64,000 nucleotides of DNA from Sedimentisphaerales bacterium. Its GTDB lineage: Bacteria; Planctomycetota; Phycisphaerae; Sedimentisphaerales; UBA12454. Location of the stretch: assembly GCA_016930635.1 (NCBI GenBank), contig JAFGGI010000047.1:27538-91537 (forward strand), in the 5' to 3' direction. Below, one piece after another: positions 3,290 through 46,118 of the stretch; position 1 is the first letter of the stretch; each line of letters opens with the position of its first letter. The notes beneath the pieces were generated by a model. That model had not been told where the DNA came from. It saw only the letters and a program-made list of their open reading frames with translations, and did not search any database. A program made the translations under genes and the position numbers.

Positions 3290-4459
3290 ATGAGTAAAAT
3301 CCACGTATTATACAGTTTTCCGCTTAGAGTAGGCACGGCCGGCAATGGTATGACGGCATGGCACCAGATATCCGGCCTTATACGTAAAGGAGTTGATGTT
3401 CATCTGTATACGGCCAGTTGTGATAAACCTATTGAATCTCTGGCCAGTCTAAAGGAAACCTTACAGCCGTTTGGTGTGAGACTGCCCCTGAGACTTTTCC
3501 CCTGGCGGGCAATGATGTGTCATGATCTTATTGTTGCCGGGAAGTTACCGGGGTTGAAAAATAAAATCGATATTATCCATTGCTGGCCATCCGGTTCTCT
3601 ACAAACCTTAAAGGCTGCCAAAAAACTTAGGATTAAGACTGTTCTTGAACGTCCCAGTTCGCATACGAGATTTGGCTACCAGGTTGTTATTGATGAATGT
3701 AAGAAGCAGAACTTTACAATGCCAAAATCTCATTATACTACCTTTAATAAACGTAATCTGGCAAGAGAAGAAAGTGAATTCGACCTTGCAGATAAGCTGT
3801 TATGTCCGTCCGAGTGGGTAGTTAAGACTTTTCTGGACCAGGGGGTAGATGCTGGTAAGATTGCAAGACATCAGTATGGTTTTGACGGTAAGAAATTCGG
3901 CCTGCCGGTTAATGACGACAGAGACAGCGATGAAATATTTAAAATGGTATTTGTTGCCAGCGGTGAACCGCGAAAAGGACTGCATTATGCTCTTGATGCC
4001 TGGCTGAGTTCTGATGCATGTAAAAAAGGAATATTTTATATTTGCGGATCATACATTAAAGGTTACCGAGAAATGTTAGCAGAGAAGTTGGCTCATCCCA
4101 GCATAAAAGAGTTGGGCTTTAACAATGATGTTGGTTCTTTGATGCGACAGTGCCATGCAATGGTTCTTCCATCTATTGATGAAGGCAGTGCTCTGGTAAC
4201 TTATGAAGCCAGGGCATGCGGGTGTGTGTTACTGGTTTCGGAGGCGACAGGTGCTCGCTGTACACATATGCATGACAGTCTTGTTCATAATGTTGGAGAT
4301 GTGGATACGCTTCGGGAGCATATTGATTTGCTGGCTAATGACAGCAGCTTTTATCAGAAAGTGCGCAAAAACAGTATTGCAGGAATAAACGATTTGACCT
4401 GGGACAGGGCCAGCGAGTTATTGCTGTCTGCTTATCAACGGTGTTTAAATGGCGATTAA
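3290..4459 (+). CDS. glycosyltransferase family 4 (GT-B fold)
   Basis: The N-terminus is ...VLYSFPLRVGTAGNG.... The C-terminal ...PSIDEGSALVTYEARACGCVLLVSE... matches the E-x7-E region of GT4 enzymes. Confidence 0.85.
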   Translation: MSKIHVLYSFPLRVGTAGNGMTAWHQISGLIRKGVDVHLYTASCDKPIESLASLKETLQPFGVRLPLRLFPWRAMMCHDLIVAGKLPGLKNKIDIIHCWPSGSLQTLKAAKKLRIKTVLERPSSHTRFGYQVVIDECKKQNFTMPKSHYTTFNKRNLAREESEFDLADKLLCPSEWVVKTFLDQGVDAGKIARHQYGFDGKKFGLPVNDDRDSDEIFKMVFVASGEPRKGLHYALDAWLSSDACKKGIFYICGSYIKGYREMLAEKLAHPSIKELGFNNDVGSLMRQCHAMVLPSIDEGSALVTYEARACGCVLLVSEATGARCTHMHDSLVHNVGDVDTLREHIDLLANDSSFYQKVRKNSIAGINDLTWDRASELLLSAYQRCLNGD

Positions 4460-4504
4460 GGCTTTCAAACCCTTAATGATAATATTTTTTCGAAGGAACA
4501 ATTA

Positions 4505-5626
4505 ATGCGTAATAGATGTTCACGCTGCATACTGCCTGCGGATTTGCCGGGCATCAGTCTTGATCAGGACGGTGTGTGTAATTATTGCCGGGATTCTAAA
4601 AGCAATGATAATTCTGATACGCCGAGTATGTCCAAGGAACAGATGATAAAGCGATTGGAAGATGTACTTGACAAGCTGAGGGGCAAAGGAAAATATGATT
4701 GCCTTGTGCCTTTAAGTGGCGGGAAAGAAAGCTGTTATATTTTGTATACTCTTGTTAAAAAATATAACATGACTCCTTTGGCTTTTAATTTCAATAATGG
4801 CTTTCAGCATAAAGATGCTGTTGTTAACATTGAGAACCTGGTCGATAAAGCAGGTGTGGACCTGGTCATATATAAACCAAGACGTGATATAATGATGAAG
4901 CTTTTCCGTAAGTTTATGACAGTGGCTGGGGAGTATTGTACTCCCTGTAATATGCTTATTAATGCGACCTCGTTCAGACTTGCCCGTGAGTATAAGATCA
5001 GGGCGGTTATGTCAGGCAATTATGGTGCGATAGACCCCGGCCTGGAAGGGATGAGTCCTTCAAGATATTATGACAGAAGATATTATTTTAATGTGGTTGG
5101 AGACTTGCTTAGTCTGAGAGAGGCGGAGCGTTACGTTGTTCCATCCTATGTACGGACGGCGATAGGAAGACTTGTCGGCACAGCACCGCAGGTTATAAAT
5201 GTTCTGGAATTTCTGCAGCCAAGTTTAGCTGAGATACATAATGTTTTGGATGCTATTGGCTGGAAACGTCCCGGCGGAGCGATACAACACGGAGACTGCA
5301 TAATTAATCCTGTAAAAGAGTATTTGATATGCAGGAGATGGGGATGTACCGAAACCACGGCCTTATATAGCAGTCTTGTCAGAAATGGGGAAATGTCACG
5401 CCAAGAAGCCCTGGAAAAAGATGCTGCTGAGACTGAAGAACAGTCACATTGTCCTTCTGTACTGCCGGAGTTTCTTAAGAATATCGATTTGACAGAAGAA
5501 GAGTTTAATGAAGCTGTAAAGAAGGATTTCAGAGAAATTCCAAATATGCGGAGCAGTCTGTTGTTTCGACTGGCAAAGAAAACCGTCCAAAAAATTGGCC
5601 AATTAAGAGGACGTGAATATAGCTAA
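4505..5626 (+). CDS. N-acetyl sugar amidotransferase (PP-loop ATP pyrophosphatase family)
   Basis: There is an N-terminal Cys pair pattern (CSRC...CNYC) followed by the PP-loop ...VPLSGGKESCYIL.... This architecture is typical of LPS/capsule N-acetyl sugar amidotransferases. Confidence 0.7.
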   Translation: MRNRCSRCILPADLPGISLDQDGVCNYCRDSKSNDNSDTPSMSKEQMIKRLEDVLDKLRGKGKYDCLVPLSGGKESCYILYTLVKKYNMTPLAFNFNNGFQHKDAVVNIENLVDKAGVDLVIYKPRRDIMMKLFRKFMTVAGEYCTPCNMLINATSFRLAREYKIRAVMSGNYGAIDPGLEGMSPSRYYDRRYYFNVVGDLLSLREAERYVVPSYVRTAIGRLVGTAPQVINVLEFLQPSLAEIHNVLDAIGWKRPGGAIQHGDCIINPVKEYLICRRWGCTETTALYSSLVRNGEMSRQEALEKDAAETEEQSHCPSVLPEFLKNIDLTEEEFNEAVKKDFREIPNMRSSLLFRLAKKTVQKIGQLRGREYS

Positions 5627-5683
5627 GCAAGCCATTGTGCCGATCGGGTTATTATCCGTTATAAAGGACATCTGAAAAATATT

Positions 5684-6637
5684 ATGATTGATGTTTCGAT
5701 TATTATTGTTAGCTGGAATGCCAGGAAGTATCTTATTGACTGCCTGAATTCTTTGGTAGAGACTTCCTGTAAATACACCAGTGAAATTATTGTTGTAGAT
5801 AATGCTTCGACTGATGGCAGTGCTGAAGCAGTTGCCAGCCGGTTTCCACAGGTTATATTGATTGAAAATGAAGATAATTTTGGTTTTGCCCGTGCCAATA
5901 ATATAGGGATAAGACAAAGTCACGGCCGATATGTCTGTTTGATAAACTCTGATGTAGTTGTGCTGCCGGGCTGTGTCGAAAGGCTAATAGAATATATGGA
6001 TAAAAACCCTTCTGTTGGAATGACGGGCCCGCAAATACTCAATCCTGACAGGACTCTTCAGGTTTCATGCAGGTGTTTTCCATCGATATGGAACAATCTT
6101 TGCCAGGCTTTAGGCCTAAACTATATTTTTCCTAAGTCACGTTTCTTTTCAGAACCTTTTATGACTTATTGGGCACATGACACCATACGGAAAGTAGATG
6201 CAGTCGGGGGGGCATTTTGGATAGTTAGTCGACAGGCTCTTGATGAGGTAGGATTGCTCGACGAAGATTTCTTCATATATGCAGAAGATGTAGATTGGTG
6301 CAAACGATTTAATGATAAAGATTACGATGTTATGTTTTTTCCGGAGGCGCAAGCTATTCATTTTGGCGGCAAAAGTTCTATAAATGCTCCAATTAGATTT
6401 TATCTTGAAATGCAGAGAGCAGATCTTTTGTATTGGGAAAAACATCGAGGCATCTTTATGGCGGCGGTTTACAAGACGATTGTTCTGCTTCGCCACATAT
6501 TGCGAGCTATAGTGAGAATGATTCAATACCCATTCTGTCGCTCCCAGAAAGAAGTTGTAAAATTCAAGTTGCAGCGATGTACTGCATGTATTCAGTGGTT
6601 ATTTAGCGGGCGGCATAGTAGTTTTAAACAAAGGTAA
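5684..6637 (+). CDS. glycosyltransferase family 2
   Basis: Motifs: ...VSIIIVSWNARKYL..., ...VVDNASTDGS..., ...NFGFARANN..., ...YAEDVDWCKR.... Confidence 0.85.
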   Translation: MIDVSIIIVSWNARKYLIDCLNSLVETSCKYTSEIIVVDNASTDGSAEAVASRFPQVILIENEDNFGFARANNIGIRQSHGRYVCLINSDVVVLPGCVERLIEYMDKNPSVGMTGPQILNPDRTLQVSCRCFPSIWNNLCQALGLNYIFPKSRFFSEPFMTYWAHDTIRKVDAVGGAFWIVSRQALDEVGLLDEDFFIYAEDVDWCKRFNDKDYDVMFFPEAQAIHFGGKSSINAPIRFYLEMQRADLLYWEKHRGIFMAAVYKTIVLLRHILRAIVRMIQYPFCRSQKEVVKFKLQRCTACIQWLFSGRHSSFKQR

Positions 6638-34128: not shown

Positions 34129-34584
34129 TTACTCCTGGCTCTCCAGCCTGAAAGCTGAAAGAACAAGTGTTACTAAGAATAACGACGCTGCAACTTTTAT
34201 GCCGATAAATATATTATATAGTGGTATTGCCCCGGCACTTACAAGCTCACCGGCAGACTCATACTCAACTAAGAATTTTTGTTGAATGAAATTATAAAAG
34301 AAAAATCCTGCTCCATAAATAAAGCCGCATAAAGCCAAAGCTATAAATAAGAACGCAGCAATACAATCTAATTTCGAAGCTAATGATATCGGAAGATTTT
34401 CTTCGGCATATTCTTTGCCGAACGCAAGCAGCAGAAGGATATAAGAGCCGGCAAGTATAACGCCGCCGGCAAACCCGCCGCCGGGTGTTAAATGACCGAA
34501 AAGGATAATATAGATACCGAACAAAAAGACCAGTACCTTTATCCAGCTTGCTATCGTTTTTACTATTATTGTCATACCCTTCAT
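34129..34584 (-). CDS. Mrp antiporter subunit B (MnhB domain; MbhF-like)
   Basis: It has ...HLTPGGGFAGGVILA... (the MnhB signature). A GGAAGGAGG RBS precedes it. Confidence 0.75.
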   Translation of the reverse strand: MKGMTIIVKTIASWIKVLVFLFGIYIILFGHLTPGGGFAGGVILAGSYILLLLAFGKEYAEENLPISLASKLDCIAAFLFIALALCGFIYGAGFFFYNFIQQKFLVEYESAGELVSAGAIPLYNIFIGIKVAASLFLVTLVLSAFRLESQE

Positions 34585-34669
34585 CCCGTTAGACCTCCTT
34601 CCCTACGACAAACGTCATTTTTATTTGAAGGGGTATCAGTACGAATTAATTTAAAAGTTCTAACGGGAT

Positions 34670-35224
34670 TCATAGCGGGTCCTCTTCAAACAGGAGTTTT
34701 CTGCTTTTTTTACGAAGTATCACAATTGCTCCGACTACAGAAGTAAACAGCACTGTAGCTTCACCCAGCGTATCATATACACGATAGTCAAGATAAACTG
34801 CTGTAACTATGTTTGCTGCTCCGGTGTCTTTGACGCCGTTTTCAAGATAAACCTGTGATGCAGAATCAGGTATTCTTGCAAAGGCGGCATCACCGAACGG
34901 GGGCATATCGGCAAAAATCCCGGTTCCAATTACAAAGATTAAGAACAGTATAACTACAGAAACTACCACGGCGAAAAACTCTCTGTCGCCGCTTATAAAA
35001 CTTTTTTCACGTGATATGGTAGCCCTTATCAAAATCACCAGTCCCAGCACTTCGACAACAGTTTGTGTCAGGGCAATATCTGGAGCCTTGAGGAAAAGAT
35101 ACATAACTGCTGAGCCGAAACCAACCGCACCGACGCAAATAACAGCACTGAGAAGGTTCGTTGTTTCGACGGCGATTATACCGGCGATCAGCATCAGAAC
35201 CATTAATATATAGAAAATTTCCAT
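34670..35224 (-). CDS. MrpA C-terminal-like membrane subunit (DUF4040; MbhD/E-like)
   Basis: I chose the start at MEIFYILMVLM... (35224) because it avoids overlap with the upstream gene ending at 35232. The product is hydrophobic and sits where MbhD/E would in Mrp-Mbh operons. Confidence 0.6.
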   Translation of the reverse strand: MEIFYILMVLMLIAGIIAVETTNLLSAVICVGAVGFGSAVMYLFLKAPDIALTQTVVEVLGLVILIRATISREKSFISGDREFFAVVVSVVILFLIFVIGTGIFADMPPFGDAAFARIPDSASQVYLENGVKDTGAANIVTAVYLDYRVYDTLGEATVLFTSVVGAIVILRKKSRKLLFEEDPL

Positions 35225-35231
35225 AACAGTC

Positions 35232-37100
35232 TTACCAGATTTCACATAAAATAAATAATAGCACAAGCAAACCGATTGTTACCCAGTTCATATATATTGG
35301 CAGAATACCATTATGCAGCCATTTCAACATGTTAGTTAATCCGCTGCCGCTTTTGCCGGCCTGAGTATAAGGGTCAAACACCTCTTTTTCCTGCCAGGAA
35401 TAAAGCTGTTTAAGACCTTCAAGAGAAGATACCGTTTTATAAAAAGCAGTTCCCGGTATTATCATCGAATCATTCGGCTGAATTTCACCACAGGTCCATG
35501 TCGGAACTTTTCTTGCTTTTTTACCGATGCTTACAGCGGCAATTATTACAGCGCCGACGCACAAGCCGATCATAAGCATTAACGTTGCAAAGGACGAATC
35601 CCAAAAACCGAGAACCTGCAAATCTCCTTTAAATCCAAGTGCAGGATAAATAAATATCTTCAAAGGCAATGTATAAAGTATGCCGAAAATCACGCATAGG
35701 GCCGCAAGTATCATCATAGGCACAAACTTGAAAGCAGATACTTCCTTTGTTTCCCTTAATGCATCAGGCATACGGGACAGGAATACAGAATGAAGGATTT
35801 TTACAAACGAGGCAAGGGTCAGAGCGCTTGCGAACATTGCTGTCACAAGCCACAATGGCCAAAGTATTGCAGCAGTGGTTGTTGTGTCTTTGCCCATTTG
35901 AATTATGCCCTGATACACGAGCCATTTCGATGCGAAGCCGTTAAAAGGCAAAACGCCTGAAATACTCATCGCCGCTATGAAGCAGGCCATAAATGTCAGC
36001 GGCATTTTTTTGCCCAACCCGCCGAGTTGTTCGAGTTCAGCGGTGCCGGTACTTTCTTCAACAGCGCCGCCGCAGAGGAACAGGCAGGATTTATATATCG
36101 AGTGGTTCAGCATATGGAAAAGTCCGCCTGCCAGACCTATAGGATTCATCGTTGCAATGCCGAGAACCATATATCCTACCTGGCTGATAGCGTGATAAGC
36201 GAACAGCTTTTTTATATTATGCTGAACCATCGCGATCATCACAGCTATCAATACCGTTGCTGCTCCGATTATTGCCAGGACAAGTCTCAGGTCCCAGGCT
36301 ACCATTGCAAATAATCCCTTTTGCGGCAGAACAAGCACAACAAGTAAATAGATACCGAGAAGCTTATCGATAGAAGCGGGCAATATCGCCATCACCGCGG
36401 CATTACTGTACTGGCCGCTTGTGGGCAGCCAGGTATGTAACGGAAATGCTCCTGCCTTAGTAAGGGCTGCGACCGCCATAAGCAAAAATGCTGCTATCGC
36501 CAGCGGCTCATTTTCCGTGATAGCAATATGAGACATCTGGAATGTCCCGCATATCTTATAAGTAAATAATATTCCCAATAGTAATGCCCCGTCGCTTGCC
36601 CCAAGCATCGCAAAAGTCTTTGTAGCGGCAAAGTTCGATTTTTCCTGGCCGGTGGTTATCATAAGATATAGTGCGACAGTAACAATCTCCCAGAAGAACA
36701 GCAGTACAAGAAGGTGGTCAGCCAGGAGAACGCCAATAGAGCCGCCTGCCGTCAGCATTATCGCGCCGTAGAAGATATTTGCAGCCTTGTTGTCCATAGA
36801 CGATTTGACCGAGTAGATTGCGATCAAAGAGGTAAAACCTGCGGCAAATAGTATCATAAATGACGACAGCGATGTGTTTCTGAGCAATAAATCAAAACTG
36901 ATTTCTTGTATATTGAAAATAGGCACACTGTAGCTTAGAGTCTTATCCTGGAAAATACCAACTGCCCCGAGAAAGACCAATGCGGTGACCAGCAGTGTCA
37001 AAGGAGCTGTAAAATACCTCAAAGCCCTGGGCAGGAACAACGTTATAAAGCCCAGAACTATTGGAGCAAAAACAATAATAGGCAGTAATTCGTTACTCAA
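35232..37100 (-). CDS. NuoL/MrpA-like proton-translocating membrane subunit
   Basis: A 622-aa polytopic protein with ...LFAYHAISQVGYMVLG... and ...GGLFHMLNHSIYKSCLFL.... It overlaps the large-subunit gene by 8 nt. Confidence 0.85.
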   Translation of the reverse strand: MSNELLPIIVFAPIVLGFITLFLPRALRYFTAPLTLLVTALVFLGAVGIFQDKTLSYSVPIFNIQEISFDLLLRNTSLSSFMILFAAGFTSLIAIYSVKSSMDNKAANIFYGAIMLTAGGSIGVLLADHLLVLLFFWEIVTVALYLMITTGQEKSNFAATKTFAMLGASDGALLLGILFTYKICGTFQMSHIAITENEPLAIAAFLLMAVAALTKAGAFPLHTWLPTSGQYSNAAVMAILPASIDKLLGIYLLVVLVLPQKGLFAMVAWDLRLVLAIIGAATVLIAVMIAMVQHNIKKLFAYHAISQVGYMVLGIATMNPIGLAGGLFHMLNHSIYKSCLFLCGGAVEESTGTAELEQLGGLGKKMPLTFMACFIAAMSISGVLPFNGFASKWLVYQGIIQMGKDTTTTAAILWPLWLVTAMFASALTLASFVKILHSVFLSRMPDALRETKEVSAFKFVPMMILAALCVIFGILYTLPLKIFIYPALGFKGDLQVLGFWDSSFATLMLMIGLCVGAVIIAAVSIGKKARKVPTWTCGEIQPNDSMIIPGTAFYKTVSSLEGLKQLYSWQEKEVFDPYTQAGKSGSGLTNMLKWLHNGILPIYMNWVTIGLLVLLFILCEIW

Positions 37101-38307
37101 ATTTAAATCCTTCTTTATATCCCATCTGTTTTTTCATTTGTTCTGTCCTGGCCCGGCTCAATCTCAAAAGCTCTTTGCCGTCGCATATGACTTTATCATT
37201 ACGGCCAACCACTGCCAAACGTTCGGTACAGCTATAGCACGGGTCGACAGAGGCAAGCGTAATTGTCGCATCAGAGATATTTGCACCTACGCATGATGCC
37301 TTGAATGACGGCACGTTTACATAGCTTGGAGCCCTGACCTTATGCCTTACAGGCCTGTTTCCGCCGTCGCTTCTTACATAATGGAAAGTCTCACCCCTCG
37401 GTGCTTCAGTATGCCCCATTGCTTCGCCGGGAGGGATTTCTTTGACTTCGACTGCGATAGGTCCGCCGGGCAGTTTCTTCAGTGCTTGGCGGGTAATTTT
37501 TATAGCTTCCATTGTTTCAAGCAGCCTTACGACGGCCTTTGCAAATACATCACCTTCGGGTTGTACGATAACATTCCAGTCGAGCTCGCCGTAAGCGGCA
37601 TAAACATCATCCCTGCGAACATCAATCGGAACACCACTGCCCCTGGCGGTCGGGCCTGTAACGGCGTATTTGATAGCATCTTCATATGTAAGGACGCCCA
37701 CACCTTTAAGCCTTGCCTGCAAAATAGGGTCGTCAAGCACAGCTTTTATAAGCATATCCATTTTCTTCTCGATTTCATCAAGCTCCTTAAGAATTTCAGG
37801 TATCATCGAATCATCAATATCCTCTCTGCAGCCGCCGACTTTTACATTGCCGTAGTTGTTCCGGTTGCCGGTGATTTTTTCAAGGATATCGAGAATCGGC
37901 TCGCGATATTTCCATGCCCACATAAAGACGGTATCATATCCAATGAAATGGCCCGCCAGGCCTACCCAGAGGACATGGCTGTGGATACGCTCAAGCTCGT
38001 TAATGATTGTTCTTACATACCTTGCTCTGTCAGGTACTGTTACGCCTGCCAATTCCTCGACAGCCTGGACAAAGGCGAGCGGGTGCGAAGCAGAGCAAAT
38101 CCCGCATATTCGTGAAATAAGATACGGTACCTGGTCGAACTGCAAAGTCTCGCTGATTCCTTCAATGCCCCTGTGGTTGAAGCCGATTCGAACATCGATA
38201 TCAGTTACAATTTCGCCGTCAACAGTAAGCTGGAAAAACTCCATTTCTTCCTGCAGCGGATGAAGCGGCCCGATAGCCAAAACAGGTTTTTTAGGTGATA
38301 TTTTCAT
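37093..38307 (-). CDS. group 4 membrane-bound [NiFe] hydrogenase large subunit (MbhL/EchE/HycE/NuoD-like)
   Basis: Both Ni-Fe ligand motifs are present: N-terminal ...RICGICSASH... and C-terminal ...DPCYSCTER.... A roughly 40-aa extension follows, consistent with processing by the endopeptidase encoded at 30001. Confidence 0.9.
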   Translation of the reverse strand: MKISPKKPVLAIGPLHPLQEEMEFFQLTVDGEIVTDIDVRIGFNHRGIEGISETLQFDQVPYLISRICGICSASHPLAFVQAVEELAGVTVPDRARYVRTIINELERIHSHVLWVGLAGHFIGYDTVFMWAWKYREPILDILEKITGNRNNYGNVKVGGCREDIDDSMIPEILKELDEIEKKMDMLIKAVLDDPILQARLKGVGVLTYEDAIKYAVTGPTARGSGVPIDVRRDDVYAAYGELDWNVIVQPEGDVFAKAVVRLLETMEAIKITRQALKKLPGGPIAVEVKEIPPGEAMGHTEAPRGETFHYVRSDGGNRPVRHKVRAPSYVNVPSFKASCVGANISDATITLASVDPCYSCTERLAVVGRNDKVICDGKELLRLSRARTEQMKKQMGYKEGFKFE

Positions 38308-38756
38308 CTTAATTTCTTGAATTCATAATCTTTTTTTAACGGGCATATACCTTGAGGCCAATCATCGGCCAAAATAAGCCTTTTCATATTCGGATGATTA
38401 TTAAACTCTATTCCGAAGGTATCGTGCATTTCTCTTTCGATCCACTCGGCGCCCGGGATGATCGGTGTTATGGACTCTATCAGCGGCTTATTGCGGTCAC
38501 GGATAAAGGCCTTTACGTTTATAAATGTGCTGAGCTGATCGTATGCGAAATGATGTATAACTTCATAGCAGTTATCTGCATCAATAGCTGTAGAAATCAC
38601 AAACCTTGCTTTTACGTCCTCGAAGAGGAATTTACATATGTTATAAACTTTTTCCGCTTCACAGGAGAGGTAAACCCTTGTAGGTGCAGTCTCTTCTATC
38701 TTTATCAGTTGATCTGATATTGAATTAATCTTATTTTTCAGTTCTTCAAGATTCAT
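38304..38756 (-). CDS. NuoC-like hydrogenase subunit (MbhK-like)
   Basis: 150 aa with ...IPGAEWIEREMHDTFGIEF..., typical of the 30-kDa NuoC family. Confidence 0.8.
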   Translation of the reverse strand: MNLEELKNKINSISDQLIKIEETAPTRVYLSCEAEKVYNICKFLFEDVKARFVISTAIDADNCYEVIHHFAYDQLSTFINVKAFIRDRNKPLIESITPIIPGAEWIEREMHDTFGIEFNNHPNMKRLILADDWPQGICPLKKDYEFKKLR

Positions 38757-39191
38757 TTAAATTGCCTTTAGAGCAGCTACAATTCCTGATATCATCGCTT
38801 CCGGCTTGGGCGGACATCCCGGTACGTAGGCGATTATCGCATTAGGATCGATTTCTTTAATTACTTTATCTACAGGACCTACCATATGATAGCCCGGCAT
38901 AAAAATACCGCTGTCACACGCACAGGCGCCGATAGCAAAAACCACACAGGGTTTTGCCGCCTGGCGATATGCTTCCTGCAGCCGCGGCTTGGCCTGGGCG
39001 GTTACAGCGCCGGTAACCAAAAGGGCATCAGCGTGACGCGGAGAACCGACAAGCTTTACGCCTAAACGTTCTACATCGAAGCGGGGCGTCAGACAATCGA
39101 CGATCTCTATATCGCAGTTATTGCATGCCCCTGTGTTGACGTGGAACACCCAGGGCGATTTCTTCAATCCGTATTTCATCCAAAAACTCAT
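38757..39191 (-). CDS. NuoB-like [NiFe] hydrogenase small subunit (MbhJ-like)
   Basis: Cys ligands lie in ...GACNNCDIE..., ...IGACACDSG... and ...VPGCPPKPE.... Confidence 0.85.
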   Translation of the reverse strand: MSFWMKYGLKKSPWVFHVNTGACNNCDIEIVDCLTPRFDVERLGVKLVGSPRHADALLVTGAVTAQAKPRLQEAYRQAAKPCVVFAIGACACDSGIFMPGYHMVGPVDKVIKEIDPNAIIAYVPGCPPKPEAMISGIVAALKAI

Positions 39192-39200
39192 ATCTTGTTC

Positions 39201-40148
39201 CTATAGCCAGCCGATACCGAGAAAATTACCAACAACAGCAAGAACCAAAGCGATAATCAGTATAGGCGAACAATAATACCAGAAGAATTTCATTATCTGG
39301 TCAATCCTCATACGCGGATTGGTATTCTTGATAAGTATTAATAGAACGACAACCACAACATATTTTATGATTCCTAAAATTATAGAGTCAAACCCGCCTA
39401 AGAACAACTCGACTACGAACACGGGCAATGCTACCAGCAGCATCGCGTGTTCCAATGTCCACATCGCAAGCAGGGGGCCCGAATATTCGATTATAACTCC
39501 ACCTGCTAGTTCCGTTTCAGCCTCTGCTACATCAAAAGGCACAAGCCCGAGTTTTGCCTGAATACATAAAATAGATACTAAAAAGGCCAAACATCCGGAA
39601 ATGCTCATTATGGGCTTAAGCCCGGACAACGCCGCCAGTGAAAGAAGCTGGGACTGTTCGATTTGGCCGCTTGCTTTGATAAGGACAATGGTAAAGGCCA
39701 ACAGCAGCGGCAGCTCATACGAGATCAAAAGCTTCATCTCCCTTGCCGAACCTATCGATGCATGCGGGCTGGCGCTGGCAGATGCTCCGAGTATCAAAGC
39801 AAGGGAGGGCATTGCCAGTAAATAGAGTACTACGATAACATCGCCTGCAAAATAGCCTTCCTTTTGCAATGCGATCCTAAGCAGCATTGTTGACAGCAGT
39901 ATAACTGAACTTAACGCAACCAGCGGGGCCAAGCAGAAAACAAAGCCGTTTGCCTCTTCGGGAATTGTCTGCTCCTTACCCAGAAGTTTTATAACATCAT
40001 AGAAAGGCTGCATAAAAGGCGGGCCGACGCGGTATTGAACTTTCGCGCTGACCTTGCGGACTATCCAGCTTGCAACGAGTCCTACGACCGCTGTAAGCAA
40101 AAAGCCTAAAAGTAAAAGTTCAATAATACTTTGACCTAAACTATTCAT
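39201..40148 (-). CDS. NuoH-like membrane subunit (MbhM/HycD/EchB-like)
   Basis: A 315-aa polytopic protein with ...VQYRVGPPFMQPFYDVIKL..., typical of the NuoH family. Confidence 0.8.
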   Translation of the reverse strand: MNSLGQSIIELLLLGFLLTAVVGLVASWIVRKVSAKVQYRVGPPFMQPFYDVIKLLGKEQTIPEEANGFVFCLAPLVALSSVILLSTMLLRIALQKEGYFAGDVIVVLYLLAMPSLALILGASASASPHASIGSAREMKLLISYELPLLLAFTIVLIKASGQIEQSQLLSLAALSGLKPIMSISGCLAFLVSILCIQAKLGLVPFDVAEAETELAGGVIIEYSGPLLAMWTLEHAMLLVALPVFVVELFLGGFDSIILGIIKYVVVVVLLILIKNTNPRMRIDQIMKFFWYYCSPILIIALVLAVVGNFLGIGWL

Positions 40149-40678
40149 CCGGACGCCTCATTTTTCTTCGGCAGAAACGGCTCCCAAAGGTCACCGCCTG
40201 CCACCTTTACAACTACGCCATCGAAAACTTCTATCATATCCGCATTCTGTGAGACATCTACTTCGTACCAGTCCAGAGCACCGTTTTTACAGGTTCCTAC
40301 ACAGAGCGGTTTGCCGTTGCTTTCCAGCCTGTCCCTGCACAGATCGCAGACATCATCGACAAATTGTATAAGTTCGGTATAAACCGTGCCGAAAGGACAG
40401 GCTATCGCACATGTCCCGCAGCCGGTACAGAGCATATCAGCTCTTTTGAGTATCTTTTCGCCGTCGCCCCGGCCGGAGTCAATCTTTTCTAAAGCATTTC
40501 TGGGACAAGCTTTTATACACGGAGCTGTTTCACATTTCCGGCAGATAAGGGCAAAGCGGATTTTCTCGAGCAGGGCCTTTACACCATTATTTTCAGGATG
40601 GTGCTTATACGAACATTGCGTATCGCACTGAGCACAATCTTTGCATTTCATCAGGTCTATTATCAGTTTTGCTGCCAT
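40145..40678 (-). CDS. multi-[4Fe-4S] ferredoxin-like electron-transfer subunit (HycB/HydN-like)
   Basis: Four Cys clusters: CKDCAQCDTQC, CRKCETAPCIKACP, CTGCGTCAIACP and CDLC...CVGTC. Confidence 0.75.
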   Translation of the reverse strand: MAAKLIIDLMKCKDCAQCDTQCSYKHHPENNGVKALLEKIRFALICRKCETAPCIKACPRNALEKIDSGRGDGEKILKRADMLCTGCGTCAIACPFGTVYTELIQFVDDVCDLCRDRLESNGKPLCVGTCKNGALDWYEVDVSQNADMIEVFDGVVVKVAGGDLWEPFLPKKNEASG

Positions 40679-40679
40679 A

Positions 40680-41507
40680 TCATTCCCAGATCTTCGGGTA
40701 ATCCTTTATCTGATCATAAGTAAATACAGGCCCATCCTTACAGACGTAATATTTTCCAATCATACAATGGCCGCACATGCCTATTCCACAACTCATATTC
40801 TTTTCCATTGAAAGGTATATCTGCTCCGCCTTGAAACCGAATTCGAGCAGCTTCAAAGTTACGAATTTCATCATTATCGGCGGCCCGCAGACAACCGCAA
40901 CAGAGTTATTGATTTTCACATCATCCGGGCTCAATATCGTCGTTACAACACCAACATTATGTTTCCACTGGTCATTACCTTGATCAGCAGTAAGTTTCAT
41001 ATTGACGCCATCGATATTCGGCCATTCGTTGAATGTTGTATGTTTATAGATAAAATCTTCCGGCGTTCTGGCGCCATATCTGCATACGATGCCGGCAAAA
41101 TCATTCTTTCTTTCCACAAGTGCCAGAAACAGAGAGCGAATCGGGGCGAGCCCGACACCGCCGCCGACTATATAAACCTGCTTGCCGGCAAATTTATCCA
41201 GCGGATAACCATTACCCAATGGCCCGCGAATACCCAACGTAGTGCCTTTTGGTATATCATGCAATTGCCCGGTTACCCTGCCTGCCTTCATAATGCTGAT
41301 TTCCATTGTTTCCTTCTGTGATGGTGAAGAAGAAGGTGTAAAAGGGGCCTCGCCGCTGCCCGGCAGTGTCAACTCGACAAACTGCCCAGCCTTAAACGGT
41401 ATGGGCTCGGCGGGTTTGAGCACAAAGCTCTTTATCGTCGGCGATTCATCGATAATATCGATGACCTCGGCGTCTATAGGCTTATATGGATTTTTGTGCT
41501 GTGTCAT
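40680..41507 (-). CDS. FAD/NAD(P)H-binding [2Fe-2S] oxidoreductase subunit (HydG/AsrB/PyrK-like)
   Basis: A ferredoxin-reductase-type fold with the NAD(P) motif ...VYIVGGGVGLAPI.... The C-terminal cluster motif is ...CGIGMCGHCMIGKYYVC.... Confidence 0.8.
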   Translation of the reverse strand: MTQHKNPYKPIDAEVIDIIDESPTIKSFVLKPAEPIPFKAGQFVELTLPGSGEAPFTPSSSPSQKETMEISIMKAGRVTGQLHDIPKGTTLGIRGPLGNGYPLDKFAGKQVYIVGGGVGLAPIRSLFLALVERKNDFAGIVCRYGARTPEDFIYKHTTFNEWPNIDGVNMKLTADQGNDQWKHNVGVVTTILSPDDVKINNSVAVVCGPPIMMKFVTLKLLEFGFKAEQIYLSMEKNMSCGIGMCGHCMIGKYYVCKDGPVFTYDQIKDYPKIWE

Positions 41508-42520
41508 TTCCTGTTCACTTCATCGTTTAATTCTCTCAGTAATCGGCGCAAATCCATTTTGCCCGATTCAGCATCAATACACCTGCCGCAGCCTACGCAC
41601 ATATTAATGCCGTATCGCTGCAGATAATATGAAAATTTATGCAGCAGACGGTGTTTTATCCGTTCGCTGATTGCTTTTCTCGGGTTCTCACCTCCTGCCA
41701 CAGCGGCATAGCTCATTCTCATACAACTGTCCCACATCTTCATCTTGCCGTAATAGTCCTTAAGCTTTGTATCCTGCAGATAGAAGCAGTGGCAGGTAGG
41801 ACAGACCCTTGTACAGGCCTGGCATTCCACGCATCCTTCGGCTTGGGCGGTATAAAGCTGTTCGCCGTCAGCACCTTCGACAATTTCCTGAACAGGTCTG
41901 TCGAGCTTGAATTTGGCATTATTCTCAGCAAGAATCTGGTCAGCTTTTTTACGGTTTTCATCGCGCTGAGCTATCTGCCCCGGCTGGACCTGGGCAAAAT
42001 GTGCTTTGGCGAGAAAATCATTTCCTGTATCTGAACCTGACTCGACTAAAAAACCGCCTTCGACAGGTGAAACATTCATATCAAAGCCTTTTTCTGCCCA
42101 GCTTTTACCGCCGAAAAGATAGCAGAAACAGTTCTCTGCAGGTTCGGTGCAGTCCGAAGCGATGATAAACATCTTTTCACGCCTGCTTATATACAGCGGG
42201 TCCTTGAAATCATCTTCTTTGAAGACATTATCGAGGATTTCTATTGAACGCAGGTCACAGTCCTTAAGACCAAAGACCGCAAAAGGCTTTACCTCAAACT
42301 GGTCTTCTTCCTGCGGGAAAACCGCGGCAAGCTCGCGTATCGGAAAGAGAAATTCTTTTATAGGTGTGCAAACACGGACTTCGTTGAATACAGCTTCCTC
42401 GTCCGGACGGTAGAGTTTATAGACATAATGGGCGCCGGCGTTTTTGGGAATGTACAATTCCCTCTCAGCCGAAACGGCGTCGAATAAAGCCTTCAGGTTT
42501 TCAACAAAAACAGTTCCCAT
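41504..42520 (-). CDS. Fe-S subunit (HydB/AsrA-like) partner of the NAD(P)H oxidoreductase
   Basis: Motifs: ...CVECQACTRVCPTCHCF... and ...CVGCGRCIDA.... It overlaps the HydG-like gene by 4 nt. Confidence 0.7.
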   Translation of the reverse strand: MGTVFVENLKALFDAVSAERELYIPKNAGAHYVYKLYRPDEEAVFNEVRVCTPIKEFLFPIRELAAVFPQEEDQFEVKPFAVFGLKDCDLRSIEILDNVFKEDDFKDPLYISRREKMFIIASDCTEPAENCFCYLFGGKSWAEKGFDMNVSPVEGGFLVESGSDTGNDFLAKAHFAQVQPGQIAQRDENRKKADQILAENNAKFKLDRPVQEIVEGADGEQLYTAQAEGCVECQACTRVCPTCHCFYLQDTKLKDYYGKMKMWDSCMRMSYAAVAGGENPRKAISERIKHRLLHKFSYYLQRYGINMCVGCGRCIDAESGKMDLRRLLRELNDEVNRK

Positions 42521-42543
42521 CTGTCTGTCCTGACAATTTTTAT

Positions 42544-43167
42544 TTATGCCGAACGCAAATAATAAGACAGAGTCGCAAGGTCCATTGCAATATCGATGTT
42601 GATTACTTTAACCTTCTTAGGCGTAGTCAAAGTGCAGGGTGCGAAATTCAGTATACCGTTGACTCCTGCCTTTACAAGTTTATTAGTAACGTCTTGTGCA
42701 GCATCCGCAGGTGTTGCAACAATCGCAAGTTTTATATTTTTTTTCTTAAGGGAATTAATTTGTGAAGCATTTTTTATAGTAAGATTGCCTATTTTCTTGC
42801 CTATCTTACGCTTGTCATTATCTATTGCACAGGTAATCTTGAAATTATAGCTTCCAAAACCGGGGTAACTTAAAACGGCTGAACCGAGTCTTCCTGCTCC
42901 TACAAGGGCAACCTGTCTTGTAGATTCCAGTTTGAGTATTCTTTTTATCTCTTTTATTAGTTTTTTGACGTCATACCCTTTGCCCCTGACGCCGAAATCG
43001 CCGAAATACGAAAAATCCTTCCTTATCTGGGAATCTGGGATATGTACGAGGTCTGAGAAATTATGGCTTGAAACGTTTGTGCAGTCTTTCTGGCAAAGCA
43101 GCATTAGCTGCCGCAGATAAACGGGCAGTCGCCTGATTGTTTCCTCCGGTATTTTGTGGTACCGCAT
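42544..43167 (-). CDS. rex: redox-sensing transcriptional repressor Rex
   Basis: The N-terminal winged helix is ...IPEETIRRLPVYLRQL.... The Rossmann motif is ...VALVGAGRLGSAVL.... It lies 23 nt upstream of the hydrogenase operon on the same strand. Confidence 0.85.
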   Translation of the reverse strand: MRYHKIPEETIRRLPVYLRQLMLLCQKDCTNVSSHNFSDLVHIPDSQIRKDFSYFGDFGVRGKGYDVKKLIKEIKRILKLESTRQVALVGAGRLGSAVLSYPGFGSYNFKITCAIDNDKRKIGKKIGNLTIKNASQINSLKKKNIKLAIVATPADAAQDVTNKLVKAGVNGILNFAPCTLTTPKKVKVINIDIAMDLATLSYYLRSA

Positions 43168-43189
43168 AGGGCCAACCCTTACCTAAAGC

Positions 43190-43207
43190 TTGTGTTCACA
43201 TTCACAA
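43190..43207 (-). promoter_or_regulatory. Rex operator-like inverted repeat
   Basis: The minus strand reads TTGTGAATGTGAACACAA. The Rex consensus as I recall it is TTGTGAA-N4-TTCACAA. The left half is perfect and the right half has 2 mismatches. It lies 23 nt upstream of the rex start. Confidence 0.55.
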
Positions 43208-43328: not shown

Positions 43329-45749
43329 TTACTGTACTTTTTCGTAAGGCCACATTTCCAGCCCGCCGTCAAGTACCCTTACATTACTGAAACCTTCTTT
43401 TTTCAGTATAAATGCCGCTTCGTAGGCTCTTAAAGAGTAGGAAGAAAAGATCACAGTGGATTTTTCCCTGTCCAGTTCGCCAAAGCGGGTTCGCAGCGAA
43501 ACAAGCGGTATCAGCGTGGAATCAGCCAGTCTTATCTGGTGATACTCAGCCGGTGTTCTTACATCCAGCAGCGTACAATCGTTGTTTTCATCTATTAACT
43601 GGCGAAGCTGAATCGGAGATATACCGTTCATCAGACCGTCGAGCTTGTTACGGGCGACGTTGGCCGCTGTTATGAGATTATCAATTACCGGCGAATAAGG
43701 CGGAGCGTAACACAGGTCAAGATTTGCTATCTGGTCAACTGTCATACCAGCTGTAATCGCGGTAGTGGCAACATCGATACGCTTATCAGCATTGCCCCGG
43801 CTTATACCCTGGGCGCCGAGCAATTTCCTGCTCTTTTTGTCAACGACAAGCTTTAACATCAAAACTTCTGCGCCGCGTACAAAATGTTCCCTGTCAGGCG
43901 CGGGAACAAGGACTGTAACAACATCGAAGTTGGCCTGTTTTGCAGCCCGTTCGGTAAGGCCTGTTACCGCAACGTTGTAATCAAAGACCTTACAGGCCAC
44001 GGCACCGAGAATCGGTGAAAAGGCGTCATTGCCGCCGCAGATATTGATAGCAGCGACTCTGCCTTGCTTATTTGCCGTTGAGCCCAAAGGCACATAGACG
44101 GGTTTTTGAGTGATCAGGTCAATATTTTCGACACAGTCGCCGGCAGCATATATATCCTTGTCAGATGTCTGCATCTGCGGGCTGACTTTTATCGCCCCGG
44201 TCGTGCCTATTTCCAGAGCTGCCTGTTGTGCTAAAGCTATATTGGGCCTGTTTCCTACCGCGACTATTACGAGATCGGCCGGGAAAGTACCCTTATCTGT
44301 CATAACCGATTCGACCTTGTCAGTGCCCTGGAATCTTTTCACTTCTGTGCTGGTAAGAACCTTTATACCGTGCGATTCAAGATGATTATCAACAAGCATA
44401 GCCAGTTCTCTGTCAAGTACACGCAGAATCTGCGGAAGTTTTTCGATGATAGTTACCCTGCAGCCTCTCATAACCAGCGCTTCTGTCATCTCTATACCTA
44501 TAAGACCGCCGCCGACGATAACAACATCGCGGGCCTTACCTTTATCGAGAGCAGCCTTTATTCCTTCAGCGTCACTGACACCATGAAGTGTGAATATATT
44601 GCTTAGATTATTTCCTTCTATGTTTGGAATAATCGGCTCTGAACCTGTCGCAAGTACAAGCTTATCATAATCGAGCAGTGACTCTGTGCTGTCGATCAGA
44701 TGTTTGACGCGGACCTGTTTTTTATCGCGGTCTATTTCAACAGCTTCGGTCTGATTCATAATATGAACGTTTTTGACCTGTTGGAAGAATATCGGGTCCC
44801 GCACAACGCCCGCAGGTGAGCTCATCAGTTCGCCCTGACTTTTGACAACGCCGCCGATATAGAAAGGAAGTCCGCAGCCTGCATAAGACAGCAGCGTTCC
44901 CTTTTCTACGATCGTAACGTCGGCATCAGGGTCAAGGCGATTGATCTTGGCAGCTACTTTTGGACCTGCTGCCACTCCGCCGATTATTACCACTTTTACT
45001 GGTCTTTCCATTTTCTTATCTCCTGGTATTTGCTCTGCTGCAACTTTAGGCGCAGCTTTTAGATTTACTATTAATTCTGTTCCGCCGAGATGTGATTTTT
45101 CGATATGTACGTTTCCGCCTGCAGCTTCGACCATCGTTTTTACGAACGCAAGACCCAGGCCTGTGCCCGGCCGGGATGATGCATGAGCTCCGGGTGTCCT
45201 GTAAAAAGGCTCGAAAACCTTTTGGCGGTTCTTCTTCTGGATTCCTATTCCGGAATCGCCGATTTTTAACTGATATGTATCAGTTGAGTTATTATATAAA
45301 AGGTGTACTTCGATGCTGCCGTTGTCGGGTGTATATTTGATTGCATTTGAAAGAAGTGCCTCAACCACTTCGGGAATTGCAGCTTCATTACCGATCGCCT
45401 GGGCGGGTTCGACATCGATTTTTGTTGTGAAATTAATGTTGTGTGCCCGGGCCTGCTCGCTCCATGCGACCGAACTTTTGCGGACAATTGAAACAAGCTC
45501 TACCACTCCGCCGAAAGCCTTGGGGTCATTGAGAGCCTTTGAGATATTAAGCACCCTCTGAGCTGCTACCAGGGCCTCATCACATCTGGCAATTGCTCTT
45601 TGCAGCATATCTTTTTGCTTGGGCGAAAGCGGACCGGCAAATTCACCGAGAAGCGTTTGAAGAATTGTGCTTATCGAGGCCACCGGCCCCTTGAGCTGAT
45701 GTGCCATTAATGAGGCAAATTTTAATGGGTCTGATATAAGATTCTTCAT
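43329..45749 (-). CDS. fusion protein: histidine kinase core (HisKA + HATPase_c) plus CoA-disulfide reductase/NADH-oxidase-like flavoprotein plus rhodanese-like domain lacking the catalytic Cys
   Basis: H-box ...LMAHQLKGPV..., N-box ...LSNAIKYT..., G-boxes ...GDSGIGI... and ...GTGLGL.... Then the FAD motif ...VVIIGGVAAGPKVA... and the redox Cys ...SYAGCGLPFYIGG.... The C-terminal rhodanese fold has ...VIFSSYSLRA... where C-R-x-G-x-R is expected. Confidence 0.85.
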   Translation of the reverse strand: MKNLISDPLKFASLMAHQLKGPVASISTILQTLLGEFAGPLSPKQKDMLQRAIARCDEALVAAQRVLNISKALNDPKAFGGVVELVSIVRKSSVAWSEQARAHNINFTTKIDVEPAQAIGNEAAIPEVVEALLSNAIKYTPDNGSIEVHLLYNNSTDTYQLKIGDSGIGIQKKNRQKVFEPFYRTPGAHASSRPGTGLGLAFVKTMVEAAGGNVHIEKSHLGGTELIVNLKAAPKVAAEQIPGDKKMERPVKVVIIGGVAAGPKVAAKINRLDPDADVTIVEKGTLLSYAGCGLPFYIGGVVKSQGELMSSPAGVVRDPIFFQQVKNVHIMNQTEAVEIDRDKKQVRVKHLIDSTESLLDYDKLVLATGSEPIIPNIEGNNLSNIFTLHGVSDAEGIKAALDKGKARDVVIVGGGLIGIEMTEALVMRGCRVTIIEKLPQILRVLDRELAMLVDNHLESHGIKVLTSTEVKRFQGTDKVESVMTDKGTFPADLVIVAVGNRPNIALAQQAALEIGTTGAIKVSPQMQTSDKDIYAAGDCVENIDLITQKPVYVPLGSTANKQGRVAAINICGGNDAFSPILGAVACKVFDYNVAVTGLTERAAKQANFDVVTVLVPAPDREHFVRGAEVLMLKLVVDKKSRKLLGAQGISRGNADKRIDVATTAITAGMTVDQIANLDLCYAPPYSPVIDNLITAANVARNKLDGLMNGISPIQLRQLIDENNDCTLLDVRTPAEYHQIRLADSTLIPLVSLRTRFGELDREKSTVIFSSYSLRAYEAAFILKKEGFSNVRVLDGGLEMWPYEKVQ

Positions 45750-45809
45750 ATAAGCCGGCTAAACAGACTCCTTTTTTACAGCATATCTTATATAAAAACA
45801 CAATAAAAA

Positions 45810-45894
45810 CGGAGGAGGGAGGATTCGAACCCCCGGTACCTTTCGGCACAACGGTTTTCAAGACCGCCACCATAAGCCACTCGGTCACTCCTCC
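45810..45894 (-). tRNA. tRNA-Ser (anticodon UGA)
   Basis: The minus strand reads GGAGGAGTGACCGAGTGGCTTATGGTGGCGGTCTTGAAAACCGTTGTGCCGAAAGGTACCGGGGGTTCGAATCCTCCCTCCTCCG. It has a 7-bp acceptor stem, anticodon loop CT-TGA-AA, a long variable arm and a GTTCGAATC T-loop. CCA is not encoded. Confidence 0.9.
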
Positions 45895-46007
45895 AAGTTA
45901 TCGAGTCGCAGGGTAATTTATACAAAAATCGGCGATATTGCAAGCGCATAAAACGCGATATTACCGACCGAATATAGATATCAGCCGGGATGAAAATTAT
46001 AGGGCAT

Positions 46008-46118
46008 CTCTAAAAATGTCATTGCGAGGAGTGAAACGACGAAGCAATCTTTATTATGGCTTAAAAAACGAGATTGCTTCGCTTTGCTCGCAATGACAAG
46101 CTTACTTTCTTTTTAGAG
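46008..46118. repeat. palindromic intergenic repeat element (REP/MITE-like)
   Basis: The arms GTCATTGCGAGGAGTGAAACGACGAAGCAATCT (46017-46049) and AGATTGCTTCGCTTTGCTCGCAATGAC (46070-46096) are imperfect reverse complements. The outer CTCTAAAAA/TTTTTAGAG arms extend the palindrome. A related unit recurs at 48296-48329. Confidence 0.7.

Follow-up and report, generated by a model that had tools for sequence, protein, structure and literature searches.

Positions 43329..45749 (minus strand) of a 64,000-nucleotide stretch of DNA from a Sedimentisphaerales bacterium (assembly GCA_016930635.1, contig JAFGGI010000047.1, positions 27,538 to 91,537), called here the window, hold a gene for an 806-residue protein in which a histidine-kinase core is joined to a flavoenzyme of the Npsr/coenzyme A (CoA)-disulfide reductase (CoADR) type with a C-terminal rhodanese domain. 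The protein has, in our estimate, an even chance of being a cytoplasmic, enzyme-based (“trigger-enzyme”) redox sensor histidine kinase, a reading that is proposed from its architecture, in which both halves are obligate dimers and nothing but the flavoenzyme could serve as input. An earlier reading, made from the letters alone (the sequence-only reading), had described an enzyme repurposed as an NAD(P)H/CoA-persulfide/redox sensor; the conserved fusion and the flavoenzyme as sole candidate input bear this out, but the loss of the rhodanese Cys cannot be a defining step in that repurposing, and the module looks like a working enzyme and not like a dead sensor shell.

Architecture of the fused protein

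The open reading frame (ORF) begins with ATG and ends with a stop codon at 43329-43331, and its extent agrees with the ORF list, Pfam, NCBIfam and the homologs. The N-terminal dimerization and histidine phosphotransfer (DHp) hairpin of the HisKA type comprises residues 8–74 (45528..45728, minus strand, as are all parts of the gene), with helices at 8–34 and 43–74 in the AlphaFold2 (AF2) model. The Pfam HisKA match to residues 10–71 scores 25.3 bits, slightly below the cut-off of 26.9, while the homologs score 28–35 bits and pass it. The phospho-acceptor His17 (codon 45699-45701) lies in the H-box AHQLKGP. The catalytic and ATP-binding (CA) domain, residues 82–232 (45054..45506), is delineated by the HATPase_c match to residues 121–232 (78 bits), by motif conservation and by the AF2 model, and holds Asn135 and the G1 (DSGIG, 165–169) and G2 (GTGLGL, 195–200) boxes. 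A linker of residues 233–251 (44997..45053), variable in sequence and conserved in length according to the AF2 model and 145 fused proteins, leads to the flavoprotein body, residues 252–700 including the dimerization domain (43650..44996), which is recognized by Pyr_redox_2 (252–546, 227 bits), Pyr_redox (74 bits) and Pyr_redox_dim (585–690, 64 bits) and by its match to the structure 6PFZ. The rhodanese domain, residues 706–806 (43332..43634), is identified by Pfam Rhodanese at 713–800 (44.6 bits) and by alignment to 6PFZ.

Neither a PAS or GAF domain nor a transmembrane segment was found in the protein by Pfam and a Kyte-Doolittle profile, the maximum of which over 19-residue segments is 1.8 and is located at the Rossmann motif. 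The kinase core occupies the very N-terminus, as the sequence-only reading had it from the H-box near residue 17 and the N, G1 and G2 boxes. A tRNA-Ser(tga) gene (45809-45895, minus strand; found by ARAGORN and by the Rfam tRNA model at 53 bits) lies 59 nt upstream, so that the protein cannot be longer at its N-terminus; the DHp helix begins at residue 8, and the N-termini of the homologs agree with this start. With the N-terminus bounded by the tRNA and no other Pfam domain in the chain, the flavoenzyme is, as far as domain content indicates, the only candidate input domain.

The AF2 model, built from 68 family members, has a mean predicted local distance difference test score (pLDDT) of 85.8 and a well-defined flavoenzyme body. 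In it, two confidently modelled parts flank a disordered linker, of which residues 236–247 have pLDDT below 50.

Conservation and distribution of the fusion

A search of 5.8 billion proteins yielded, at 55–80% identity, more than 120 clusters of full-length proteins (798–839 residues) with the same architecture. The clusters derive from NCBI, JGI, ENA and Logan assemblies, the window protein itself being a database singleton. The combination of HisKA, HATPase_c, Pyr_redox_2 and Rhodanese domains, for which the sequence-only reading had proposed a database search, is therefore real and conserved. The homologs are named only “FAD-dependent oxidoreductase” or carry a JGI string on sulfur-reductase-like and rhodanese-related enzymes, and a full-text literature search covering the architecture, possible precedents and the hydrogenase and Rex context in Sedimentisphaerales found no description of the fusion.

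A scan of 185,579 species, each represented by a single genome, found 80 loci; together with separately fetched loci, it gave 30 distinct fused loci and 52 stand-alone CoADR-rhodanese loci, the latter enzymes showing similar identity (55–64%). Fused genes occur in Planctomycetota (Phycisphaerae, Sedimentisphaerales, Pirellulales, Brocadiaceae), Verrucomicrobiota, Lentisphaerota/Victivallales, Krumholzibacteria and a few other bins, most of them in the first three phyla. A single origin of the fusion is no more than possible, as a rough neighbour-joining tree requires six changes of state.

His17 is kept in all 145 fused sequences and Asn135, G1 and G2 in essentially all, the N, G1, F and G2 boxes (N135, DSGxG, FxPF, GxGLGL) being conserved family-wide, a pattern which indicates that the kinase motifs are under selection. 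Cys292 and Glu436 of the enzyme part are invariant in 198 of 198 sequences. The linker is the segment of lowest identity, and its length stays within 15–24 residues, with a mode of 19–20.

Some longer homologs (L025, L038, L070, L033) were considered as carriers of extra N-terminal domains, but Pfam finds none and the extensions are probably over-called ORF starts. The ORF at L033 (9380-11752) encodes 790 residues, with the Npsr-rhodanese part following about 235 residues that match neither a kinase nor any other Pfam domain; it may have an over-called start in a high-GC genome. In several members (L084 9017-11571, P0122, P0124, P0125, P0130, P0131 and P0144) the ORF is split or truncated, covering the kinase and the beginning of the flavoprotein before the frame changes; these are likely assembly or sequencing frameshifts, or else pseudogenes.

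The kinase half

By its motifs, the N-terminal part is an ordinary HisKA transmitter. A search with residues 1–245 against 1.84 billion representative proteins (E<=1e-30) gave only 79 matches, the best of them outside the fused family being the complete 239-residue proteins P0126 and P0127, which consist of the kinase core alone and are 44% identical to it. Free-standing DHp-CA cores of 239 residues without a sensor, 36–44% identical to the fused kinase module, are represented by P0126, P0127, P0143, P0156 and the gene at L089 466-1185. A split pair of kinase and enzyme genes was considered and rejected: P0126 is a complete gene, which adjoins a prepilin-peptidase gene and is not adjacent to an Npsr gene, and the other short matches are truncated fusions.

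Cys56 in the DHp hairpin is conserved, and the variants carry Ile or Leu in its place. A role as redox partner, in a regulatory disulfide or a persulfide relay with Cys769 or Cys292, was rejected because Cys56 and Cys769 are lost independently (both present in 108 sequences, only Cys56 in 21, only Cys769 in 12, neither in 2) and because the replacement by Ile or Leu points to a buried core, where Cys56 probably lies.

The flavoenzyme half

Residues 252–800 align end to end with CoADR-rhodanese enzymes of known structure. The best match is the Npsr of Archaeoglobus fulgidus (6PFZ, E=7e-150), followed by 3ICR (5e-102), 3NTD and 3NTA (about 1e-94) and 8A56 (2e-93). The best NCBIfam models are those for CoA-disulfide reductase (TIGR03385 / NF007123), and both matches fall under the equivalog cut-offs (423.7 vs 578.8 and 391.9 vs 458 bits). 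By these scores the protein is related to CoA-disulfide reductase and is not called its equivalog.

The redox Cys292 (codon 44874-44876), within SYAGCGLPFYIGG, aligns in the segment SYAGCGLP with the active-site Cys of 6PFZ and 3ICR; the complete pyridine-nucleotide-disulfide oxidoreductase with its redox Cys had been correctly recognized in the sequence-only reading. The body further contains the FAD motif GGVAAG (257–262), the loop SSPAGVVRD (309–318) and the NAD motif GGGLIG (413–418) together with Glu436, all within the coordinates of the flavoprotein body.

The A. fulgidus enzyme is NADH-specific, reduces persulfides and polysulfides but not disulfides, has NADH oxidase activity as well, and possesses an unusual lid loop, TTYGAVR, covering the bound CoA (PMC7969121). 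The segment SSPAGVVR of the window protein aligns with this lid loop, and Gly314, Arg317 and Asp318 are invariant in the family. Glu436 sits at the end of the NAD-binding β2 strand, and by the usual rule for Rossmann folds an acidic residue at this position favors NADH, which would then be the preferred cofactor of the window protein too. With Cys292, the CoA lid loop and both the FAD and the NAD motif retained, the module looks like a working enzyme, as would be expected of a trigger enzyme, and not like a dead sensor shell.

The stand-alone Npsr loci (for example L031, L042, L043, L056 and L078) are often flanked by a recurrent gene cluster, which is also found at the fused locus L006. It encodes a CbiA/MinD-type ATPase with 4Fe-4S motifs, Nitro_FeMo-Co (NifX-like) proteins, an ARMT1-like phosphatase, DUF5320, an MBL-fold protein, a radical-SAM protein and a small ArsR-type regulator.

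The rhodanese active site

The rhodanese domain is present in the window protein without its sulfur-accepting Cys. The active-site loop reads F-S-S-Y-S-L-R, the counterpart in 6PFZ being VCAIGLR, and the alignment places Ser769 (codon TCT, 43443-43445) where 6PFZ and most homologs have the catalytic Cys. The sequence-only reading had given the loop correctly as S-S-Y-S-L-R, but the CRxGxR with which it compared the loop is not the reference for this family, in which the loop is C-[NKQ]-[YI]-S-L-R. Ser772, Leu773 and Arg774 are conserved even in members that lack the Cys.

All 36 closest relatives of the window protein have the loop F-C-N-Y-S-L-R, so that three changes (A767I, C769S, N770S) are specific to the window lineage, and its rhodanese domain shows 65.7% identity to relatives as compared with 73.4% in comparable pairs. 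The three loop changes together with the diverged domain indicate a real remodelling and not a single-base error, although one limited to the window lineage. Cys is found at position 769 in 120 of 143 fused proteins (84%), with Gly in 13, Ser in 9 and Asp in 1, and in every one of the 52 stand-alone enzymes, none of which has Gly, Ser or Asp there. Its retention in most fused homologs, and in all 36 closest relatives, means that Cys loss, which the sequence-only reading had taken as one sign of repurposing, cannot be a defining step of it.

In a rough neighbour-joining tree built on the enzyme part, loss of the Cys occurs about ten separate times, every time on fused branches (total length 17.9) and never on stand-alone ones (10.9), a skew with P ~0.008 under equal rates per unit branch length. 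The confinement of Cys loss to fused lineages is suggestive only, and fits a lower need for full catalysis in the fused proteins. In the CoA-persulfide reductase of Enterococcus faecalis (EfCoAPR), both Cys residues are required for turnover (PMC9405070), and a full relay of sulfur from the rhodanese to CoA and on to Cys292 is therefore unlikely in the window protein.

Candidate response regulators

No response-regulator receiver (REC) domain was found in the 64-kb window, even at E<=50, and no second kinase either, in agreement with the sequence-only reading, which had seen no response-regulator gene there. A single-domain REC gene lies directly adjacent to the fused gene in four divergent loci (L023, L038, L068, L070), and at L002 a REC ortholog lies 5.8 kb away; some family members thus sit, by gene order, in true two-component operons. 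The REC proteins of L070, L068, L038 and L002 are 50–85% identical to one another, and that of L023 is 32% identical to them. Their candidacy as a specific partner family was rejected, as the same REC family occurs also in Myxococcota, Acidobacteriota, Pirellulales and Brocadiia and is widespread in phyla without the fusion.

At L070 (12476-14585) and L068 (5537-7643) a Cys-less fused kinase is followed by genes for the single-domain REC, a 386-residue protein with two cNMP-binding domains and an ArsR-type regulator, a set which may represent a complete signaling cassette.

A putative enzyme-based sensor kinase

In the proposed mechanism, the input would be the C-terminal Npsr module, a homodimeric NADH-dependent persulfide/polysulfide reductase of the CoADR-rhodanese type. 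Its redox state, that is, the state of the FAD, the presence of Cys292 as a thiolate or as a Cys292-S-S(n)-CoA adduct, and the occupancy by NADH, would mirror how NADH and oxidant are balanced. For the majority of the family this oxidant is probably sulfane sulfur, which the rhodanese Cys would accept and the bound CoA would deliver to Cys292. In the window copy this entry of sulfur would be closed by Ser769, and the protein would respond mainly to NADH/NAD+ and to small oxidants with direct access to the site of Cys292, CoA and FAD. Through the flexible tether of about 19 residues, or by direct docking, the flavoenzyme dimer could pass on its state and alter the access of the CA domain to His17 on the DHp dimer, similarly to the regulation of CheA by its C-terminal P5 domain. 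A small single-domain response regulator encoded elsewhere in the genome would then receive the phosphoryl group.

Several observations speak for this sensor reading: the full-length fusion is conserved, the linker keeps to 15–24 residues, the kinase motifs are maintained along with Cys292 and Glu436, no other input domain is present, the rhodanese Cys is lost in fused lineages only while the rest of its loop stays conserved, the closest characterized enzyme is an NADH-specific per- and polysulfide reductase with the same CoA lid loop, the AF2 model shows two confident modules, REC genes adjoin some of the fused genes, and linkage to rex and a hydrogenase operon recurs (L005, L085/L086 and, rearranged, L023). 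Other points weigh against it. Control of the kinase by the enzyme module is something that we infer, as are the identity of the signal, the action of the tether and the partner; what is observed directly is the domain architecture, the conserved motifs, the distribution of the family, the adjoining REC genes at some loci and the pattern of Cys loss. Signals in kinases usually travel through rigid helical connectors, but this linker is disordered and variable. Most members keep every catalytic residue, and the protein may be first of all an enzyme. Free-standing 239-residue cores exist, hence the kinase core does not require covalent attachment to an enzyme. In most of the fused loci, about 26 of 30, there is neither a nearby REC gene nor a conserved neighborhood, and the breadth of the adjacent REC family makes it a plausible class of partner, not a specific one. 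The Cys-loss statistic, finally, depends on a rough tree.

Several of these points would also suit a bifunctional fusion without coupling, in which the Npsr module is a plain persulfide/polysulfide (or NADH) oxidoreductase, the kinase is controlled by something else, such as a partner protein or its response regulator, and the fusion serves co-expression, co-localization or stabilization of the dimer. The intact enzyme motifs in 84% of fused members, the flexible and variable linker and the existence of sensor-less kinase cores are all compatible with it, as is the L006 locus, where the fused gene stands in the same CbiA-Fer4/Nitro_FeMo-Co/ARMT1 neighborhood as many stand-alone enzymes. We nevertheless consider it rather unlikely. 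Both modules and the length of the linker are preserved across several phyla at 42–80% identity, which would be unexpected without a functional link; the loss of the rhodanese Cys only in fused proteins suggests that the fusion altered the selective demands on the enzyme; and no other input domain or conserved partner gene was seen.

Coupling in the reverse direction, with ATP binding, phosphorylation of His17 or docking of a response regulator switching the reductase, would make the protein a signal-controlled enzyme instead of a sensor. The kinase does precede the enzyme in the chain, as regulatory modules usually do, and at L023 a GAF-sensor kinase and a REC protein encoded just upstream could feed signals into the fused protein. 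This appears improbable, however, as the full phosphotransfer set (H, N, G1, F, G2) shows the conservation usual for transmitter kinases, the adjacent REC proteins are single-domain and as such typical kinase substrates, and the literature searched yielded no example of a fused oxidoreductase under the control of a HisKA core, nor is one known to us.

Decay in the window genome, where the exchange of Cys769 for Ser would have disabled an enzyme that is no longer useful, could account for the faster divergence of the rhodanese domain and for the clustering of window-specific changes at the active-site loop, and the need of EfCoAPR for both Cys residues points the same way. It is a very improbable explanation all the same: the frame of 806 codons is intact, the kinase, FAD, NAD and Cys292 motifs are all kept and the other domains match the relatives normally, Ser772, Leu773 and Arg774 are retained, and Cys-less variants persist elsewhere as small clades and are hence viable. 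That the domain junctions arose by misassembly or frameshift is excluded by the same architecture with colinear junctions in more than 145 independent sequences and by a GC content that runs along the gene without a break.

A more specific form of the enzyme-based sensor reading, which we regard as possible though short of probable, combines these elements into what would be the first two-component sensor for reactive sulfur species and for NADH poise. A working persulfide reductase would do the sensing, and the kinase would report the turnover of its own enzyme, sulfane sulfur or another oxidant set against NADH, under control exerted through a flexible tether from a domain that follows the ATP-binding domain. 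The Cys-less variants, the window protein among them, would have narrowed their input to NADH/NAD+ or to small oxidants such as O2, as a kinase counterpart to Rex in strict anaerobes.

Comparison with known systems

The enzyme part is closest to the group of Npsr, CoADR-RHD and CoA-persulfide reductase enzymes, which includes the Npsr of A. fulgidus (6PFZ) and of Shewanella loihica (3NTA), the CoADR-RHD of Bacillus anthracis (3ICS) and the CoA-persulfide reductase of E. faecalis (8A56). It shares with them the FAD and NAD folds, the single redox Cys in an S-x-x-x-C motif beside the flavin, the dimerization domain and the C-terminal rhodanese, and with the A. fulgidus enzyme also the lid loop and an acidic residue, Glu436, favoring NADH. 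Unlike all characterized members of this group it carries an N-terminal histidine-kinase core of 245 residues, and unlike EfCoAPR, where the rhodanese Cys is required, it has Ser at that position.

Flavin- or thiol-based redox kinases include NifL and MmoS, with FAD-binding PAS domains, ArcB and RegB, with redox Cys residues and quinone, and SrrB. As in these proteins, a histidine kinase is thought to follow the redox state by means of a flavin, a reactive Cys or both. The sensors of these kinases are small PAS or Cys modules placed N-terminal to the DHp and joined to it by helices, whereas the candidate input of the window protein is a whole oxidoreductase of 560 residues, C-terminal to the CA domain and on a disordered tether. 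The nearest precedent for control of a kinase from a domain that follows the ATP-binding domain is CheA, in which the regulatory P5 domain lies C-terminal to the P4 kinase domain. CheA differs in being a class II kinase with a separate histidine phosphotransfer (HPt) domain and receptor control through CheW, and has no relation in sequence or fold to the Npsr module.

To our knowledge, none of the well-studied persulfide/polysulfide sensors (CstR, SqrR, BigR, FisR) is a two-component kinase, and none uses a reductase as its sensor. Persulfide/polysulfide chemistry would be the same sensed input, but these regulators are one-component DNA-binding proteins which sense by Cys pairs of their own. 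In E. faecalis, a CstR-type regulator controls the CoADR-RHD enzyme (PMC9405070). Rex would read the same NADH pool as the fused protein and is genetically linked to it in the window, L005, L085/L086 and L023, although protein and mechanism are unrelated. The unusual feature of the predicted protein is its combination and order of domains, with a whole oxidoreductase after the CA domain as sole candidate sensor.

If the enzyme-based sensor reading is true, it would add a new class of input and a new geometry of wiring to two-component signaling, provide a tractable soluble model for the conversion of enzyme turnover into phosphorylation, and point to an unrecognized layer of redox or sulfur regulation among the anaerobes of the Planctomycetota, Verrucomicrobiota and Lentisphaerota, mostly uncultured bacteria that abound in sediments and digesters. 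Public annotation hides the kinase, the named homologs all being “FAD-dependent oxidoreductase” or similar. The support at present is comparative sequence evidence, and the reading would surprise a specialist in two-component systems or reactive sulfur.

Genomic context: rex and the hydrogenase operon

As described in the sequence-only reading, the fused gene lies directly upstream of rex and a hydrogenase operon on the same strand. The rex gene (42544..43167, minus strand), for the repressor that senses NADH/NAD+, is identified by the NCBIfam Rex models above their cut-offs (NF003995, 246.8 vs 126 bits). A palindrome resembling the Rex operator, TTGTGAATGTGAACACAA, with two mismatches to the consensus, is located at 43190..43207, 23–40 nt upstream of the rex start and downstream of the stop codon of the fused gene.

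The operon at 34129..42520 (minus strand), assigned by Pfam and NCBIfam, is by its gene content that of a group-4 [NiFe]-hydrogenase with an NAD(P)H-type input module. It encodes Fer4_22, FAD/NAD, Fer4_11, NuoH-like, NuoB-like, 30 kDa (NuoC-like), NiFe large subunit, antiporter-like, MbhD/E and MnhB proteins, including sulfhydrogenase β-like and γ-like subunits of an NAD(P)H module and a ferredoxin-like subunit; the first two genes resemble those for the sulfhydrogenase β and γ (or AsrA and AsrB) subunits. A sulfane reductase of the Mbx/Mbs type in place of a hydrogenase was ruled out by the large subunit, where RICGICSASH and DPCYSCTER, and with them all four Cys ligands of the NiFe site, are kept. 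The region 34129-43207 as a whole suggests an NAD(P)H-linked, ion-translocating hydrogenase under the control of Rex.

The order of fused gene, rex and hydrogenase is common to the relatives of about 79% identity (L005, L085, L086), and the same 18-mer as the window palindrome occurs at the same position in L005 and L085. Relatives at 70–76% identity do not have this order: in L087 and L088 the fused gene adjoins carAB, and in L001, L006 and L008 it lies elsewhere. More distant members (L002, L003) lack the linkage as well, and the majority of the other fused genes lie elsewhere. At L023, a Sedimentisphaerales locus whose fused protein has 59% identity, rex, a GAF kinase, a REC gene and the fused kinase form one unit, divergent from the same kind of hydrogenase operon; the promoter region that the two have in common contains a Rex box.

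Control of the fused gene itself by Rex was considered and rejected. The only good Rex box of the window lies downstream of the fused gene and before rex, so that the fused gene is probably outside the Rex unit there, and in the 30 fused loci the fused gene is never directly preceded by a Rex box.

Upstream of tRNA-Ser, the intergenic region contains a perfect 12-nt inverted repeat, TGTCATTGCGAG and CTCGCAATGACA, at window positions 46017-46098 with the arms 58 nt apart; it has no Rfam match, the tRNA being the sole match of the Rfam scan of the region. In the L023 hydrogenase operon, an additional gene (4069-5829, minus strand) encodes a 586-residue subunit with weak matches to molybdopterin oxidoreductases, which hints at a formate-hydrogenlyase-like variant of the complex.

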